A stretch of DNA of 64,000 nucleotides from sequence record NC_054924.1; one strand, 5' to 3'. Shown piece after piece: positions 2,184 through 14,642 of this stretch. The notes beneath the pieces are model-generated. The model had not been told where the DNA came from. It worked only from the letters and a program-made list of their open reading frames with translations, and did not search any database. Made by a program: the position numbers and the translations under genes. Numbering within the stretch: the first letter of the stretch is position 1; each line of letters starts with the position of its first letter. This DNA is from Escherichia phage vB_EcoM_Lutter.

Positions 2184-2198
2184 TTTGTATCCAATTGT

Positions 2199-3053
2199 TC
2201 ACAATGAAGAAAATTCTTTAACTAAAGCCTGTAATGAAGCCTCTATTGGATATCCGTTCTTAACTAACATTTTCCTAAACATCACATGTTTAGGACGATT
2301 ATATGATATCCACAATTCATACAATTTATCTTTATTATCCCAATGATAGCCTTTTCGTCGAGATGCTATATGAGCTTTTCTAATCTCCGGATTTTTCCAA
2401 CTAGCAGCTACTGAATTTGATATAGCTATTTTATATTCAGGTTTTGATAAAGCAGCACGAACAGCCTTTTGGTGTTTAATTTTATTTTCTTCGTTATTAA
2501 ACCATTCCCTTGAAGCCATTGAAATTTTTTGTTTTGTTTTAAAACTATTTAATCTTTCTTTGTTATCTTTCCTATTTTTTGCTACTGAAAAATATTTTAA
2601 TGCCCTTTCTCTAGCAGCATTTCTATTTTGCGGATTTGAATAATATTGTTGAAGCCTTTTTGATATTGTGTCACTTACATCTTGTTTTATAAAACTATAT
2701 TCAGCAGCTATTAAATCAACTTCGGCTAAAGATAAATTTTTATATGTTTTTCCTGACATCATTCTATTTAAAGCATTTAGCATTTTTCCATTTTTACCTT
2801 TTGCTAATAAGAAATGTGCTTTAAAATGATTAAAATGACTTAAATTAACTAAATTCCATGTAGATTTTAAATATTCAGGAAATATTGATTTAGGAAGCAC
2901 GTGATGTGCTTCCGTTTTACCTGGAGTTTTAACAGTTGAATTCATAGAAATAAAATTAATGTAAGACTTGGCGTCTTCTTCACTCAACGCTAATTTTTCA
3001 ACTAATTCCTTTATTAAAAATTCATCATTAATGTCAAGTTTAAAATTCTTCAC
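2199..3053 (-). CDS. free-standing HNH homing endonuclease with NUMOD-like repeats (possible GTG start)
   Basis: 284 aa; HHVLPKS...NLVNLSHFNH HNH motif; repeated basic NPxxRxAxxxA-type modules; sits between genes 46 and 47. Confidence 0.65.
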   Translation of the reverse strand: MKNFKLDINDEFLIKELVEKLALSEEDAKSYINFISMNSTVKTPGKTEAHHVLPKSIFPEYLKSTWNLVNLSHFNHFKAHFLLAKGKNGKMLNALNRMMSGKTYKNLSLAEVDLIAAEYSFIKQDVSDTISKRLQQYYSNPQNRNAARERALKYFSVAKNRKDNKERLNSFKTKQKISMASREWFNNEENKIKHQKAVRAALSKPEYKIAISNSVAASWKNPEIRKAHIASRRKGYHWDNKDKLYELWISYNRPKHVMFRKMLVKNGYPIEASLQALVKEFSSL

Positions 3054-3258
3054 AAAAGATTCCTTTTAATGTATCTTTTAGACCATTCTATCATATCATC
3101 ATAATCTAAAAAGTATTCATCAAATTCAGCCATGCAAACAACACCTTGTGCTGTTTTTGATGTAATATAAATTATTCCAACATATCTAGAATCTTCTTCG
3201 GTATAATCAATGTTTGCTATGAATTCATCATTAATGTCAAATGTCGAAAACTTCACAG
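3018..3258. repeat. direct repeat pair bracketing a ~200-bp small-ORF cassette next to the HNH gene
   Basis: aattcatcattaatgtcaa exact at 3019-3037 and 3222-3240, plus shared cttcac; both copies hold a TGA/GTG stop-start junction. Confidence 0.6.
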
Positions 3259-4516: not shown

Positions 4517-5117
4517 GGTGTCTTTTCCATCCTAATTTAGCTGCTTTTGAAACCAGTTCTTTAATTTTTCCTTTTGTCCATTCAGGACCAGGAGGTTCAT
4601 GACATAACAATTGCTTAACTCCGTTATTATACCATTTTTTACCTTTATTATGTGATGAAGCTTTAAATTTATTTGACCTTCCTTTTACATAACCTTCTGG
4701 AATATAAGGCAAAAAGGCAGATTTTCCTGTTAATGGATCATGTGAATGTATATTTCCTTTACAATTATGAGAACCATATAATGGATGATTTTGTCCTTTA
4801 TTATCTCTTCCAAATGAACCTTTTGGAGCAGCATATGACATATTAAAGAATAATGGATTTTTAACTGCATCATGCAATCGTTGATAATATAACTCGCATT
4901 TAATAGCTTCTTCACGTGTATCAAATTCAGCTAAAATGCATGAATCAAATAAGTGAGGATTATCTAAAAGCTCTTTATTATAAATTTTCTTATACTTTTT
5001 AGATAAAACTGAACCATGATATCCAGCTAAATGCCTATCTAAAGACGTAGATCCAATATAAAAAGGAGGAAGTTTATCTCCACTATATATTGTTAAATAA
5101 GTTATATATTTTTTCAT
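4494..5117 (-). CDS. free-standing GIY-YIG homing endonuclease (seg-like)
   Basis: 207 aa; N-terminal YITYLTIYSG...FYIGST (GIY-YIG), C-terminal Gly/Lys/His-rich NUMOD-like region; overlaps end of gene 47. Confidence 0.65.
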   Translation of the reverse strand: MKKYITYLTIYSGDKLPPFYIGSTSLDRHLAGYHGSVLSKKYKKIYNKELLDNPHLFDSCILAEFDTREEAIKCELYYQRLHDAVKNPLFFNMSYAAPKGSFGRDNKGQNHPLYGSHNCKGNIHSHDPLTGKSAFLPYIPEGYVKGRSNKFKASSHNKGKKWYNNGVKQLLCHEPPGPEWTKGKIKELVSKAAKLGWKRHHENTKLG

Positions 5118-5277
5118 ATATCAAGAACCGTCATTGAAATGCAAAATAAAATTAATGAAATAAATCCATCTGGAGTGCTAAAGAACCCAATCCAACATGC
5201 TCTAGTGAACAAATAAAACGCTAGAAAAAGTATCACATATCCAAGAAATATCATTATATCAAACTCCGTATAAAGCT

Positions 5278-5296
5278 AAAGGGCCGAAGCCCTTTA
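5278..5296 (-). terminator. CUUCGG tetraloop hairpin (terminator-like) at a-gt 3' end
   Basis: AAAGGGC-UUCG-GCCCUUU on minus-strand RNA, overlapping a-gt stop. Confidence 0.45.
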
Positions 5297-6496
5297 TTTT
5301 GTAATAATGTCAAACTGTTCTTTAAAGCAGAAGCTTGAATCTTGATGCTGATACAAAAATTCATAAGCTTTTTCGCGTTCACGGTCATAAAGAGCTCGGT
5401 CAGATGACAGTTCTTTAATACGCTCAAATGTTGATTCCATGTCATTTTCATCAAACCAAACGATACCGCTATCATGAGAAATTAACGGAGTATTATCAAC
5501 ACGGAATTTTAAATTTTCACCAGTAGATTTCCAAAATACTGGAATTGTTCCGCATGCACCAAGCTCGAGATGAGTGTATTCTAAAGAACGTTGTAGATAT
5601 TTTTTATCTAATTTACTCAGCTGATAACCAAATCCGGATTTACTCATACGTTCAAGCATTTCGCTATTTACATAACGGTCGAGAATTTGCGTTGACAAAT
5701 TAGGAGCAATTTTAATTTGGTCTACTTGATGAAGACGATAATACTCGTATGGAATTCCTTTTTCTTTAATAGGAATGAACGCTGGAGAACGTTCCAGACC
5801 TTCCATAATAGTACTCAATCCCGCAGGTTTAAGATGTTTTTCATGAAAATCAAACATCTGATAAAAGCCTTTCCATGTAGTAGTACGACCAATCCAACGG
5901 TTGATATTCATGTTAATTTCAGAAACATCTTTCCAGTAGGTTGATCGAACCTTCGCAATATCCATAGGAGGCTGAAAGTTATATACGGTCGGTGCTTCTT
6001 CAATATCATCAAACAGAGAAACTGTTTCTGGATACCATTCTTTCATCAGAACTTTATTAAAATCGCCATTATCAGAATGGCTAAAAATAACATCAGCTCG
6101 ACGAACAGTTTCTTCTAATCCCAAATTTCGGCGCAAAGAAAGAGAAGAATGGTCATGTTGATAAACTACAACACGAACCGAAGGTTTAATGTTATCAATA
6201 ATTTTTTTATAGTTATTAATAGTGTCTTCTTCGACTGAAGTAGCAGGAACTGAATTGATAATTAGAATATCACAATCATTTACCAGCTTAAGTGTTTTAT
6301 CGTATTCTTTTGCCAATAAAACCGGAATTGAAAATGACTTATAATCATGCGCGCAATTACGAGTAAATGATTTATCTTTAGCATAAACCAAAGTTACTTC
6401 ATGACCATTTTTAATAAACCAATCACGTTGCTCAAGAGAAAATTTAGTTACGCCACAACCTTCAAGACCTCGAGCCATAAAAATGCATACTTTCAT
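5294..6496 (-). CDS. a-gt: DNA alpha-glucosyltransferase
   Basis: 400 aa, same length and position as T4 a-gt; glycosyltransferase-like. Confidence 0.8.
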   Translation of the reverse strand: MKVCIFMARGLEGCGVTKFSLEQRDWFIKNGHEVTLVYAKDKSFTRNCAHDYKSFSIPVLLAKEYDKTLKLVNDCDILIINSVPATSVEEDTINNYKKIIDNIKPSVRVVVYQHDHSSLSLRRNLGLEETVRRADVIFSHSDNGDFNKVLMKEWYPETVSLFDDIEEAPTVYNFQPPMDIAKVRSTYWKDVSEINMNINRWIGRTTTWKGFYQMFDFHEKHLKPAGLSTIMEGLERSPAFIPIKEKGIPYEYYRLHQVDQIKIAPNLSTQILDRYVNSEMLERMSKSGFGYQLSKLDKKYLQRSLEYTHLELGACGTIPVFWKSTGENLKFRVDNTPLISHDSGIVWFDENDMESTFERIKELSSDRALYDREREKAYEFLYQHQDSSFCFKEQFDIITK

Positions 6497-10530: not shown

Positions 10531-11001
10531 TTAATCATGTTTCCACACCCCATCGGTATTTGACCAAAGCCGCTGATTATCTGATCCTCGCCACAGCTTT
10601 TTAGTCGGAAGATTTTTCTCATACTTCCCATCAATAATAACATCAACATATTTAAGCATTTCTAGCTGTTTAACATCTTCAAACTTATATCCTGTCCACA
10701 ACCAAATGCTTTTATTGGGATAAAGATTTTTTACTGTTTGAACAATGCAATGAATAACATCTCGGTTATCAGGATAGAGAGGGTCACCTCCAGTTATAGT
10801 CAATCCTTCTATATAATCATTATTCAAACATTCAATTAATTGCTCTAGTGTTTCACCAGTGAATGGAACGCCATTTCTAGCGTTCCATGTTGATTTATTA
10901 TAACACCCTTCACATTTATGCAAACAACCTGTAACGAAAAGAACGACCCTGCATCCAGGGCCATTCACAAAATCGCAAGGATAAAATCTATCATAATTCA
11001 T
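10531..11001 (-). CDS. nrdG: anaerobic ribonucleotide reductase activating protein (radical SAM)
   Basis: 156 aa; CxxxCxxC-type cluster GCLHKCEGCYN; 4-nt overlap with nrdD. Confidence 0.9.
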   Translation of the reverse strand: MNYDRFYPCDFVNGPGCRVVLFVTGCLHKCEGCYNKSTWNARNGVPFTGETLEQLIECLNNDYIEGLTITGGDPLYPDNRDVIHCIVQTVKNLYPNKSIWLWTGYKFEDVKQLEMLKYVDVIIDGKYEKNLPTKKLWRGSDNQRLWSNTDGVWKHD

Positions 11002-12815
11002 TGGTGTTTAACCCTATGCATGATTTCTTTATTTTTGCCGAGATTAAATCCACGTTCGTTCGGATTTCCCAAATAACCACAAGTTCTTCTTATTGTGTTC
11101 ATCTTTTTAGGATCAGTTTCTCCACAAATAGAACAAACAAACCCGTTTTCAGTAGGAGTCATTTCATGGGTACTTCCGCATGTAAAACACTTATCTACTG
11201 GCATATTAACACCAAAATAATCTAAATGCTGTGCAGCATAATCCCACACGGCCTCAAGACCTTTTAGGTTATTTTTCATATCAGGAAGTTCAACATAAGA
11301 AATGTGACCACCTGTCGCAATGAAATGATATGGCGCTTCACGAGAAATCTTTTCAAACGGAGTAATATTTTCTTCTACTGAAACATGGAAACTATTAGTG
11401 TACCAGCCTTTATCAGTAACATCCTTTACACTTCCATATTTCTCAGTATCAAGTTTACAGAAGCGATAGCACAGGTTTTCAGCAGGAGTAGAATACAAGC
11501 TAAAAGCAAAACCAGTTCTTTCAGTCCACTGCTTAAGACGAGCATTCATTTTAGTTAAAATTTCTCGTCCAATATCACGACCGACAAGAATATTCAATTC
11601 GTGAATACCAATGTATCCTAGGGACACTGAACTTCTACCGTTTTTAAATAACTCAATTATGTCGTCATCAGGTTTAAGACGAACCCCGAATGCACCTTCT
11701 TGGTAAAGAATAGGAGCAACAGTAGCTTTAACTCCTTTTAAGGAACTAATTCTACACATCAAAGCTTCAAAACATAAATCCATTCGTTCATTAAATAGCT
11801 CAACAAATTTCTGTTCATTGAATTGTGTTCCAATATAAGAATCTAACGCGATGCGAGGAAGATTCAGTGTTACAACACCAAGATTATTACGTCCATCAAG
11901 AATTTCATTACCAGTCGAATCTTTCCATACGCTCAAGAAACTACGGCAACCCATTGGAGAAACAGGAACAGATGAACCGGTGATAGCTTTATTGTTCTTA
12001 GCTGAAATAATATCAGGATACATTCTTTTGCTTGCACACTCTAGAGCAAGCTGCTTAATATCATAGTTCGGATCGTCTTTGTAAAGATTAACGCCTTCTT
12101 CGACGAACATAACAAGCTTAGGAAAAATAGGAGTTATCCCATCACGACCGAGACCTTTAATGCGGTTTTTAAGAATTGCCTTCTGAATCATTCGTTCAGT
12201 CCAGTCAGTTCCCGTACCAAATGTAATTGTTACAAAAGGAGTCTGTCCGTTTGAACTAAAGAGAGTATTTACTTCATATTCATAAGCTTGGAATGCATCG
12301 TATACGTCTTTTTCTGTTTTAGATTGAGCATAATTCAACGCATCAGCGATTTGCCATTTTTCTGCATCCTCAATATGTTTTGCATAGGTGCGTTTAACAT
12401 AAGGAGAAAGTACTTTATCTACATTCGCAAAAGTCGTTCCGCCATATTGGTGAGAAGCAACCTGTGCAGTAATTTGTGCCATAATTGCAGTAGCAACGCC
12501 AATTGATTTAGGAGTTTCAATCTGTGCATTACCTAGCTTAAATCCATTCTCAAGCATCCCCTTTAAATCTACTAAACAACAATTAGTAAAGGGCAATGAT
12601 ATACTGTAATCTAAATCATGAAAATGAATTAATCCAACATTATGGGCATTTACAATATGACTTGGAAGAATACGACAAGCGATATGTTTAGAAACAATAC
12701 CGGCCATTAAATCTCTTTTTGTTGGAAAGACACGAGAATCTTTGTTGGCGTTTTCGGTATTTAATTCTTTATCTTTATTTGAAATAAAATTTAAAACATC
12801 TTTCTCTAAAGACAT
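10998..12815 (-). CDS. nrdD: anaerobic ribonucleoside-triphosphate reductase; uninterrupted (no intron)
   Basis: 605 aa continuous ORF; C-terminal CxxC zinc site and glycyl-radical region. Confidence 0.93.
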   Translation of the reverse strand: MSLEKDVLNFISNKDKELNTENANKDSRVFPTKRDLMAGIVSKHIACRILPSHIVNAHNVGLIHFHDLDYSISLPFTNCCLVDLKGMLENGFKLGNAQIETPKSIGVATAIMAQITAQVASHQYGGTTFANVDKVLSPYVKRTYAKHIEDAEKWQIADALNYAQSKTEKDVYDAFQAYEYEVNTLFSSNGQTPFVTITFGTGTDWTERMIQKAILKNRIKGLGRDGITPIFPKLVMFVEEGVNLYKDDPNYDIKQLALECASKRMYPDIISAKNNKAITGSSVPVSPMGCRSFLSVWKDSTGNEILDGRNNLGVVTLNLPRIALDSYIGTQFNEQKFVELFNERMDLCFEALMCRISSLKGVKATVAPILYQEGAFGVRLKPDDDIIELFKNGRSSVSLGYIGIHELNILVGRDIGREILTKMNARLKQWTERTGFAFSLYSTPAENLCYRFCKLDTEKYGSVKDVTDKGWYTNSFHVSVEENITPFEKISREAPYHFIATGGHISYVELPDMKNNLKGLEAVWDYAAQHLDYFGVNMPVDKCFTCGSTHEMTPTENGFVCSICGETDPKKMNTIRRTCGYLGNPNERGFNLGKNKEIMHRVKHQ

Positions 12816-13627
12816 AATTCTAATTTATCCTTTTGAAATTCTTCGTCTAAATATGGGTTCCAACCCATTTTAAACCTTTTGATGAAATTATCAATTCTAA
12901 ATTTCGGTAAGTTTAAATCCGCAAAAATAGATGATTTACTTTTAAAATCTGGACCTAAATAATCATATAAAATTTCTGCGTATTTTAACCATAATATACA
13001 AGTACCAGATTTAATTGCGTTCGGATGTTTCCAAGGTTTTACACCATACATCGGATTTCCACTTCCTTTATGCCTGATAGAAGATGAAATTCCAATTTTA
13101 ATTTTAGCTTCCTTTGTATGCGAAAATCCACGATGCGGATTTTCTTTCCAGTATTTTTTAGAAGCTTCTGATATTTTCTTTCTGGCTAAATTAGTATGAT
13201 GCTTTCCATAAAATCCATGATTTTTGCCTTTATTACGATTTCTTTTAATCATGGTTATTGATTGCTTTTCTCTAGTTTCTTTAGAAGGAGAAACACCGTA
13301 CGTTGTAAATTGACCATCAGCATATGCTAAATTAAAATACTCTTTATTCCATACATCTTTTTCTATATTCTTTTGAAATTCAGCTTCAATGCTAGTTATT
13401 TGTTCATCTCCGACTAATTGAAAATATAATATTTCAACTTTCGGCGTTTCTTTCAATAAGGCTTTTTGAAATTCGGAAGATGACGAAGACGAATAATAAA
13501 ATTTACCATTTTTATCAATAATATTCGTTCCATCAAAAGTGCAATTGGTTTTACTTCCAATGTAATAATATGGTGGGGTTTTAGCATTAATTCTATTAAT
13601 AAATGATAGTTTATATACTACGTTCAT
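12806..13627 (-). CDS. free-standing GIY-YIG homing endonuclease
   Basis: 273 aa; VVYKLSF...YYYIGSK then NUMOD-like repeats (NRNKGKNHGFYGKHH, GSGNPMYG); wedged between 49 and nrdD. Confidence 0.6.
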   Translation of the reverse strand: MNVVYKLSFINRINAKTPPYYYIGSKTNCTFDGTNIIDKNGKFYYSSSSSSEFQKALLKETPKVEILYFQLVGDEQITSIEAEFQKNIEKDVWNKEYFNLAYADGQFTTYGVSPSKETREKQSITMIKRNRNKGKNHGFYGKHHTNLARKKISEASKKYWKENPHRGFSHTKEAKIKIGISSSIRHKGSGNPMYGVKPWKHPNAIKSGTCILWLKYAEILYDYLGPDFKSKSSIFADLNLPKFRIDNFIKRFKMGWNPYLDEEFQKDKLELCL

Positions 13628-14097
13628 TTTAAACTCTTTCTAAGCTGCTTCTTAAATGAAGCTATTAACTGTGTTTTGGTGTCAGATTCATTATATTCAA
13701 ATCCTCTTTGAAGCATCTCGGCCATCATTTCCTCTTTTCCTAAACGAGAAAATTCCTTTGATTTATCTCCAACAAAGTTAGGGTGAATATTATTTTGGGT
13801 GTAATCGGATTTTAAATAAGTAAGTAAATTTTCTAACCATTCAAGATAATCAACACCTTGTCCCTTTAAGCCAGAACGATTAAATTTATGTTTCATTTGA
13901 CCTTCTGCGGCATTGCAGAGATTACAAAGCAATCCACGTACCTTTCCTGCTTTTGGTCCATTTAATTCATGGTCATGGTCGAGGTGATTAGCTTGAACAT
14001 CAGGATTTAGTTCTCGTTGGCAAATTAAGCATTTACCGTTTTGTGCATCATAAAATTTCTGTTTTTCTTCTTTATATAATTTGCCAGTCAATAACAT
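13624..14097 (-). CDS. 49: endonuclease VII (Holliday junction resolvase)
   Basis: 157 aa; zinc motif CLICQ...HLDHDHE...CNLCN; T4 gp49 length. Confidence 0.9.
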   Translation of the reverse strand: MLLTGKLYKEEKQKFYDAQNGKCLICQRELNPDVQANHLDHDHELNGPKAGKVRGLLCNLCNAAEGQMKHKFNRSGLKGQGVDYLEWLENLLTYLKSDYTQNNIHPNFVGDKSKEFSRLGKEEMMAEMLQRGFEYNESDTKTQLIASFKKQLRKSLK

Positions 14098-14138: not shown

Positions 14139-14642
14139 TCAAGTATTGTAAAACATTTGATTCAATCGCTTATATTGCCGAATCTTTTGGTCAGAAAAAG
14201 AAATTTGGGTTTCAAGCCATTCAATATATTCTGCCGCAGCTTGCATCAGGTTACCTTCATAGCCATCGTTATTTTCTTGTGCAGCTAATTTAGCTAATGC
14301 GTATGAAATACGTTCACCTTGAAAATCGGCTTTAGGCTTCTGAACAACTTGATTAGTTCGCTCTACAACTTCTTCAATTTCGCCATTTTCTACTGATTCA
14401 GTATTCCACAAGCACCAATACGTAATTGGCTTATCATAGATGTTAATAATCTTTCCGTCGGAAAGTTCAATTTCAATAATTCCAGTATCAGGCTCTATAT
14501 CATCTTCACATTCTTTTGCAAGTTCACGAACTTTAAAGACAGTACCTGCACTAAGTTCCGGCCAGTAATTACACAGCCCTGTATCAGCACGATTAATTCT
14601 AAACCACTTATCTACTGTAATCATGTCCCATCTCCATATCAA
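14139..14642 (-). CDS. hypothetical acidic protein (167 aa)
   Basis: ORF between 49 and nrdC. Confidence 0.5.
   Translation of the reverse strand: MIWRWDMITVDKWFRINRADTGLCNYWPELSAGTVFKVRELAKECEDDIEPDTGIIEIELSDGKIINIYDKPITYWCLWNTESVENGEIEEVVERTNQVVQKPKADFQGERISYALAKLAAQENNDGYEGNLMQAAAEYIEWLETQISFSDQKIRQYKRLNQMFYNT

Follow-up and report, generated by a model that had tools for sequence, protein, structure and literature searches.

The window analyzed here is a stretch of 64,000 nucleotides (nt) from Escherichia phage vB_EcoM_Lutter (NC_054924.1). A free-standing gene at 12806–13627 on its minus strand, between gene 49 (endonuclease VII) and nrdD, encodes an intact protein of 273 amino acids (aa) that belongs to the SegG family of GIY-YIG homing endonucleases. 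As delimited by alignment, the putative mobile unit covers window positions 12594–13623 (approximately 1.03 kb) and consists of this gene, called seg below, together with a foreign form of nrdD codons 1–74. We consider it likely that the cassette spreads by intronless homing of the Seg type, with a target in the 5′ region of nrdD. The gene is an uncharacterized SegG-family endonuclease gene with a new insertion site, 49/nrdD, although the kind of element is well known.

The junctions were defined by comparing carrier and non-carrier genomes. In non-carriers, the homology to the window ends at the stop codon of gene 49 (13624–14097, minus strand; Pfam) and resumes inside nrdD. The left junction is exact to the base in this alignment. 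It is an ATGA at 13624–13627 (minus strand), in which the stop codon of 49 overlaps the seg start; its ATG starts nrdD in non-carriers and the seg open reading frame (ORF) in carriers. In T4, 49 abuts nrdD directly through an identical ATGA. The initial annotation had described nrdD as one uninterrupted gene of 605 codons, which is borne out by the ORF list and by Pfam (10998–12815, minus strand; NRDD, E = 5.7e-171), and it had correctly given a 10-nt overlap between nrdD and the 273-aa ORF. It was wrong in placing the endonuclease gene downstream. Both genes are on the minus strand, so seg lies immediately upstream of nrdD, and it is the stop codon of seg that overlaps the nrdD start.

The foreign part of nrdD is sharply bounded. 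The gene has the same length in carriers and non-carriers. Between five carriers and eight non-carriers, all 75 fixed differences fall within nt 1–222 (codons 1–74; window 12594–12815, minus strand); when 15 carriers are compared with eight non-carriers, there are 67, the last at nt 222. This tract diverges from non-carrier alleles by approximately 37% at the nucleotide level, and 29 of its 74 codons carry an amino-acid change. Past nt 222, the divergence between the two classes equals that within them. Homology with non-carrier nrdD resumes at codons 75–80 (PFTNCC; window 12576–12593, minus strand), and from nt 223 on carriers have the polymorphisms of their own genus background. The rest of the window nrdD is best matched by non-carriers (97.5%). 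The record giving this best match is PV654520.1, a 142-kb entry named Pseudomonas phage vB_PSGBLB0006 with Pseudomonas aeruginosa as the host label; the host is odd for a T4-like coliphage sequence, and the record may be mislabeled or contaminated. In the phage collection, the 222-nt tract is found at ≥95% identity only in 47 seg carriers and in phage OLB35 (described below), and it is always inherited with seg. Partial-tract recombinants were absent from this collection, where two extra records at 90–95% were trivial short matches. A donor lineage was not found for the tract, for which the best non-carrier matches are approximately 75% (Slopekvirus) and 71% (T2).

The 49 side behaves differently. 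Gene 49 has zero fixed differences between carriers and non-carriers, and the cassette adjoins two alleles of it, T4-type and Mosigvirus-type, which are only 81% identical to each other. The switch points differ among carriers and lie inside the conserved last ~110 nt of 49, which form the left homology arm. These comparisons indicate that 49 is not co-transferred with the cassette. A single shared 49 allele hitch-hiking in carriers had been suggested by five loci and was rejected with 15.

The seg gene occurs in 47 phage records at 97–99% identity, always between 49 and nrdD, while approximately 690 records have an nrdD ≥90% identical to that of the window. The carriers span two genera, Tequatrovirus and Mosigvirus. 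Scans of IMG/VR and of metagenomes added only copies that had already been seen or were near-identical. Like other Seg-type genes, seg is a free-standing ORF between conserved genes, on the same strand, variably present and with base-exact junctions. In public records it is labeled as a homing endonuclease, as a hypothetical protein or, wrongly, as SegG (JK42 record).

That the ORF is not a chance one follows from its improbable length (273 stop-free codons at ~30% GC, a chance of roughly 1e-10 by simple arithmetic), from the existence of homologues and from purifying selection. Thirteen of 15 sampled copies are intact; codon 20 is a stop in the copy of phage Manna, and the Pu-Krd-SF3 copy is frameshifted. 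The intact copies differ by 29 synonymous and 21 nonsynonymous changes (ratio of nonsynonymous to synonymous polymorphism, pN/pS, 0.175), none of them at an invariant residue, a pattern that indicates purifying selection. Two further genomes have lost parts of the locus. In OLB35 (L029, MH992122.1; 905–2722, minus strand) the seg gene is deleted and a seven-codon scar is left. The NrdD of this phage starts with MNVVYKL, the first seven codons of seg, fused in frame to a cassette-type nrdD, and is full-length and chimeric. In FL18 (L030, PP400780.1; 2109–3600, minus strand) seg codons 1 to ~200 run directly into the final ~20 nrdD codons, almost all of nrdD being deleted, and this phage is apparently left without the large subunit of the anaerobic reductase. 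FL18 also has a second endonuclease gene (276 aa) of the canonical GIY-YIG/NUMOD3/I-TevI type, at the mobC/segH position before nrdG.

The nuclease domain of the 273-aa protein (aa 1–105; window 13313–13627, minus strand) carries VVY5, R12, Y22-I-G24-S-K26, E81 and N99. The protein matches PHROG families annotated as homing endonucleases, and in tblastn searches its residues 1–126 are approximately 40% identical to the N-terminal domain of T4 SegG (E = 4e-27). Across 17 relatives, residues Y5, R12, Y22, G24, S25, K26, E81 and N99 do not vary, and E81 and N99 are constant across alignment A1 too. An AlphaFold2 model of aa 1–105 built from these 17 relatives (predicted local distance difference test score, pLDDT, 89; predicted template modeling score, pTM, 0.83) has the characteristic GIY-YIG alpha/beta fold. 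The spacing between the GIY and YIG motifs is longer than the canonical 10–11 residues. The GIY-YIG identity given in the initial annotation was sustained by the SegG homology and by the modeled fold and was not sustained by sequence profiles. The Pfam GIY-YIG family (PF01541) did not match the N-terminal 130 residues even at E ≤ 10, the nuclease domain was not found in sequence searches of the PDB, and TIGR01453 matches weakly (8e-5), below its own cut-off. T4 SegG likewise has no Pfam match at E ≤ 1, so the failure of the profile to match is a trait of the subfamily. All close copies keep six consecutive serines (SSSSSS, aa 46–51; window 13475–13492) where relatives have G/S-S-S-K/R. The loss of a conserved K/R within this run was considered and rejected, as the position is not invariant in the family.

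The nuclease domain is followed by a linker with NUMOD3 repeats (aa ~115–190; window 13058–13285, minus strand). The only Pfam match of the protein is here (NUMOD3, aa 130–153, E = 5.5e-8), and the linker is absent from T4 SegG and from P0004, an enzyme encoded between gene products (gp) 59 and 32 that matches T4 SegG along its whole length at 40% identity. The DNA-binding domain of I-TevI (1i3j) is matched by the family profile at E = 0.004. The C-terminal region (aa ~195–273; window 12809–13045, minus strand) is presumed to bind DNA. It has no Pfam match; its helices are predicted at pLDDT 70–90, and it has PWK..P...W...GWNPYLD.EF motifs in common with the enzymes at the SegG position. The window protein aligns with P0004 from end to end and, from its sequence and its 49/nrdD location, is a SegG-family paralogue and not the SegG orthologue. 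Its nuclease activity is presumed from these relationships. Other relatives with the same nuclease domain and different tails adjoin gp5, DNA polymerase or uvsX. One of them, P0003 (L027, ENA ERZ13617658 contig, 5001–5822), lies between gp5 and a 5.1-like gene and has the same nuclease domain (56% identity) with an unrelated C-terminal half. P0003 illustrates domain shuffling by which the nuclease is redirected to a new locus.

Signals for expression were sought in and around seg. The T4 late-promoter consensus TATAAATA was not found in the region, and sigma-70-like matches were not enriched over shuffled sequence. Because of these two results seg looks like a promoter-less cassette that would be translationally coupled to 49 through the ATGA. 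The same arrangement has been described for several seg and mob genes of T4 (PMC2988022). A sigma-70-like match of 10/12 positions (TTGATA-16-TAAAAT; window 12894–12867, minus strand) lies inside the 3′ end of seg, approximately 50 nt upstream of the nrdD start, and could be an embedded nrdD promoter. The likely ribosome-binding site of nrdD (AAGGA; 12828–12832, minus strand) is also inside the 3′ end of seg, within the EFQKD codons. The RNA folds of the start regions, computed without controls, were unremarkable.

A distant phage sequence preserves what appears to be a fossil of the insertion. The 4714-bp Logan contig SRR27536177 (L026) is from a T4-like phage with approximately 68% nucleotide identity to the window. 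At 2188–3180 it has, after 49, a 55-codon remnant of the 5′ end of the resident nrdD and then a frameshifted seg homologue (P0002, 57% identical to the window protein), followed by a complete nrdD. The 55-codon ORF starts at the usual ATGA and ends directly at the seg start, so that the unit seems to have landed inside nrdD at about codon 55. The 5′ end of the complete nrdD has ELNTEN, PTKRD and GLIH.HDLDY in common with the window tract, whereas T4-type alleles have LLNEN, PTQRD and GIIHVHDIDY at these positions. The AAGGA is present in the conserved EFQKD codons at the 3′ end of seg in both the window and the L026 lineages. This shared nrdD 5′ end and AAGGA suggest that seg and the 5′ end of nrdD travel together as an old unit.

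Intronless homing is a process in which a free-standing endonuclease cuts a nearby site in a genome without its gene, and repair from the carrier copies the gene and its flanks (PMC2988022). Applied to the window cassette, the enzyme would, in a mixed infection, cut both DNA strands of a cassette-free phage within the 5′ portion of its nrdD. The predicted position is nt ~165 to ~280 of the non-carrier gene, next to the PFTNCC codons; the equivalent in the window would be 12536–12651 (minus strand), as estimated from the end of the L026 remnant and the uniform right boundary. The break would be resected and then repaired from the cassette-bearing genome, with the last ~110 nt of 49 and nrdD from codon 75 as the arms. 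This repair would bring in seg with the diverged 5′ end of nrdD, which probably no longer carries the target. We infer the position of the cut and the immunity of the carrier allele from sequence comparison, and the cut is placed at nt ~165–280 because the tract is linked to seg obligatorily and on one side only, the L026 remnant breaks off at codon 55, and the right boundary is uniform at nt 222–225. TNCC makes up residues 77–80 of NrdD in both the window and T4, and we take Cys79 of the T4 protein to be catalytic. The population footprint fits preferential inheritance with co-conversion: the cassette is spread across genera, the nrdD 5′ tract always accompanies it, and the endpoints on the 49 side vary. 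The proposal of inter-genic homing against the neighboring gene made in the initial annotation is upheld on comparative grounds, because the gene is polymorphic for presence or absence with an exact junction, is spread over two genera, is always inherited with the nrdD 5′ end and only with that side, and also exists in decayed and deleted copies.

An extended form of this proposal is an endonuclease that carries a replacement for its own target. The nuclease would recognize conserved nrdD around the PFTNCC active-site codons and attack phages of many genera, and its own diverged 5′ end would remove the cleavage site and confer immunity. Such a module would move between genera by two short arms and could insert inside nrdD in distant hosts, leaving a duplicated 5′ remnant as in L026. 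We regard this extended form as possible, although we would not yet favor it.

Several points weigh against a homing endonuclease that cuts in the 5′ region of nrdD. The Pfam GIY-YIG model fails to match the window protein. The canonical arginine after YIG (R27 of I-TevI) is not conserved in the subfamily, where R12 and K26 are invariant instead; T4 SegG has the same R12/K26-type pattern without the canonical arginine. Cleavage by the window enzyme is proposed on comparative evidence, and the codon-55 breakpoint comes from a single independent fossil, L026. According to Sandegren et al. in 2005, some free-standing endonucleases reportedly also cleave the genome that encodes them, in which case a carrier allele need not be immune. 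Finally, recombination inside a tract with ~37% divergence is unlikely, and the linkage to seg would therefore be perfect wherever the cut lies. This last point leads to an alternative in which the endonuclease is active and cuts outside the nrdD 5′ region, whether within 49, farther into nrdD, or in nrdG. On this view the 222-nt tract would be left over from an acquisition between lineages and be too diverged to recombine away, as this divergence would block homologous crossovers within it. The right boundary does coincide with the resumption of nucleotide homology, and the cleavage sites of free-standing endonucleases can lie hundreds to thousands of bp away from the endonuclease gene (PMC2988022). 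However, 49 is not co-transferred, as seen from its two allele classes and variable left switch points, and past nt 222 the polymorphisms of the genus background appear at once, without an extended co-conversion gradient into nrdD. The L026 remnant, moreover, ends inside the 5′ end of nrdD. We judge a cut outside the nrdD 5′ region to be unlikely.

Still less probable, and in our view quite improbable, is that seg is no longer a mobile nuclease and has been retained for the nrdD signals embedded in it, namely the ribosome-binding site and possibly a promoter. The AAGGA and the 10/12 sigma-70-like match are indeed within its 3′ end, and promoters embedded in endonuclease genes have been described as a mechanism of retention (PMC2988022). 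Purifying selection acts along the whole ORF, however, with invariant catalytic residues, and a near-identical gene in two genera indicates recent spread. In OLB35, seg was deleted and nrdD kept in frame, and promoter-like matches are no more frequent than in shuffled sequence. In the last alternative, seg is functionally tied to the nrdD intron: it would either attack alleles without the intron or mobilize the intron in trans, in the way that mobE acts on the nrdB intron. For mobE, trans-homing of an intron with a defunct endonuclease is documented (PMC2790892). The initial annotation had likewise treated the intron-less state of nrdD as informative, and it was right that T4 nrdD has an intron (1033 nt, encoding I-TevII). 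In our survey this intron occurs in only 25 records, more than half of which are T4 itself or laboratory variants of T4, against ~690 records with closely related nrdD. Approximately 96% of close relatives lack it, irrespective of the presence of seg, and three carriers (Manna, G8 and fPS-2) have both elements. The intron-less state is thus the norm among relatives and is uninformative for seg. The empty I-TevII site of the window nrdD (nt 538/539; window 12278/12277, minus strand) was located by comparison with T4. It is 316 nt past the cassette boundary, and carrier-specific differences were not found around it. The T4 intron, moreover, encodes its own endonuclease, I-TevII, which is listed as active (PMC2988022). 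A link between seg and the intron is hardly credible. We retain Seg-type homing with a cut in the 5′ region of nrdD as the likely explanation.

The closest known system is SegG, an active free-standing GIY-YIG homing endonuclease encoded between genes 32 and 59 with its target in gene 32 (PMC2988022). The window protein has a homologous N-terminal nuclease domain (40% identity) with the same invariant Y/R/YIGSK/E/N pattern and, as seen through P0004, a C-terminal region of the same type. In both systems the gene appears as a promoter-less cassette directly upstream of the presumed target gene, with expression signals of the downstream gene inside the endonuclease ORF. The window gene differs in its location at 49/nrdD with nrdD as the presumed target, in ~60 extra residues of NUMOD3 repeats, and in the 222-nt foreign replacement of the 5′ end of the target gene. 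SegH is a GIY-YIG gene that replaces mobC between nrdD and nrdG in some relatives of T4 (Sandegren et al. 2005, cited in PMC2988022). Like seg, it is free-standing, of the seg type and close to the anaerobic ribonucleotide reductase genes, and it is set apart only by its different junction. The second endonuclease of FL18, at the mobC position, is a different, canonical GIY-YIG protein, unlike the window gene. I-TevII is also a GIY-YIG enzyme and is likewise hosted by nrdD, but it is encoded by an intron and acts at nt 538, whereas the window gene is free-standing at the nrdD 5′ end; the two occur independently and sometimes together. The identity to I-TevI, the structural prototype, is only 21%. 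Between the YIG strand and helix 1, the window domain contains an additional hairpin; it seems to lack an arginine at the R27 position, and the window gene is not intron-encoded. In the searchable literature, reports of an endonuclease gene located between 49 and nrdD were not found.

The understanding of how free-standing homing elements work is unchanged by this cassette. What it offers is a narrowly bounded prediction of the target (nt ~165–280 of nrdD of T4 or T2), and a locus that displays the whole life cycle in natural isolates, with intact, mutated, truncated and deleted copies, transfer between genera and an insertion fossil. The locus further shows how genes of this type give rise to abrupt mosaic borders within a metabolic gene that is otherwise conserved. 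The analysis also puts right the annotation of the gene as SegG or as a hypothetical protein in public records.

In the direction of transcription, the genes around the cassette are pin (14139–14642; Pfam PinA), 49, seg, nrdD and nrdG (10531–11001; Pfam NrdG), all on the minus strand. The window phage is without both the nrdD intron and mobC, an HNH gene located between nrdD and nrdG in T4. Its nrdD and nrdG overlap by 4 nt (10998–11001, minus strand) with nothing between them, and the mobC/segH insertion site, compared with T4, is empty. Many carriers have extra insertions of ~210, 370, 790–830 or 1850 bp within the nrdG-nrdD-49-pin stretch, for example Pu-Krd-SF1/2/5/6/7, TadeuszReichstein, fPS-2, F26, Lv5cm, AV121, OES_C-1/2, MLP2 and PD112. 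For some of these insertions the annotation gives a second or third homing endonuclease. The nrdG-nrdD-49-pin neighborhood appears to be a hotspot for several independent elements.

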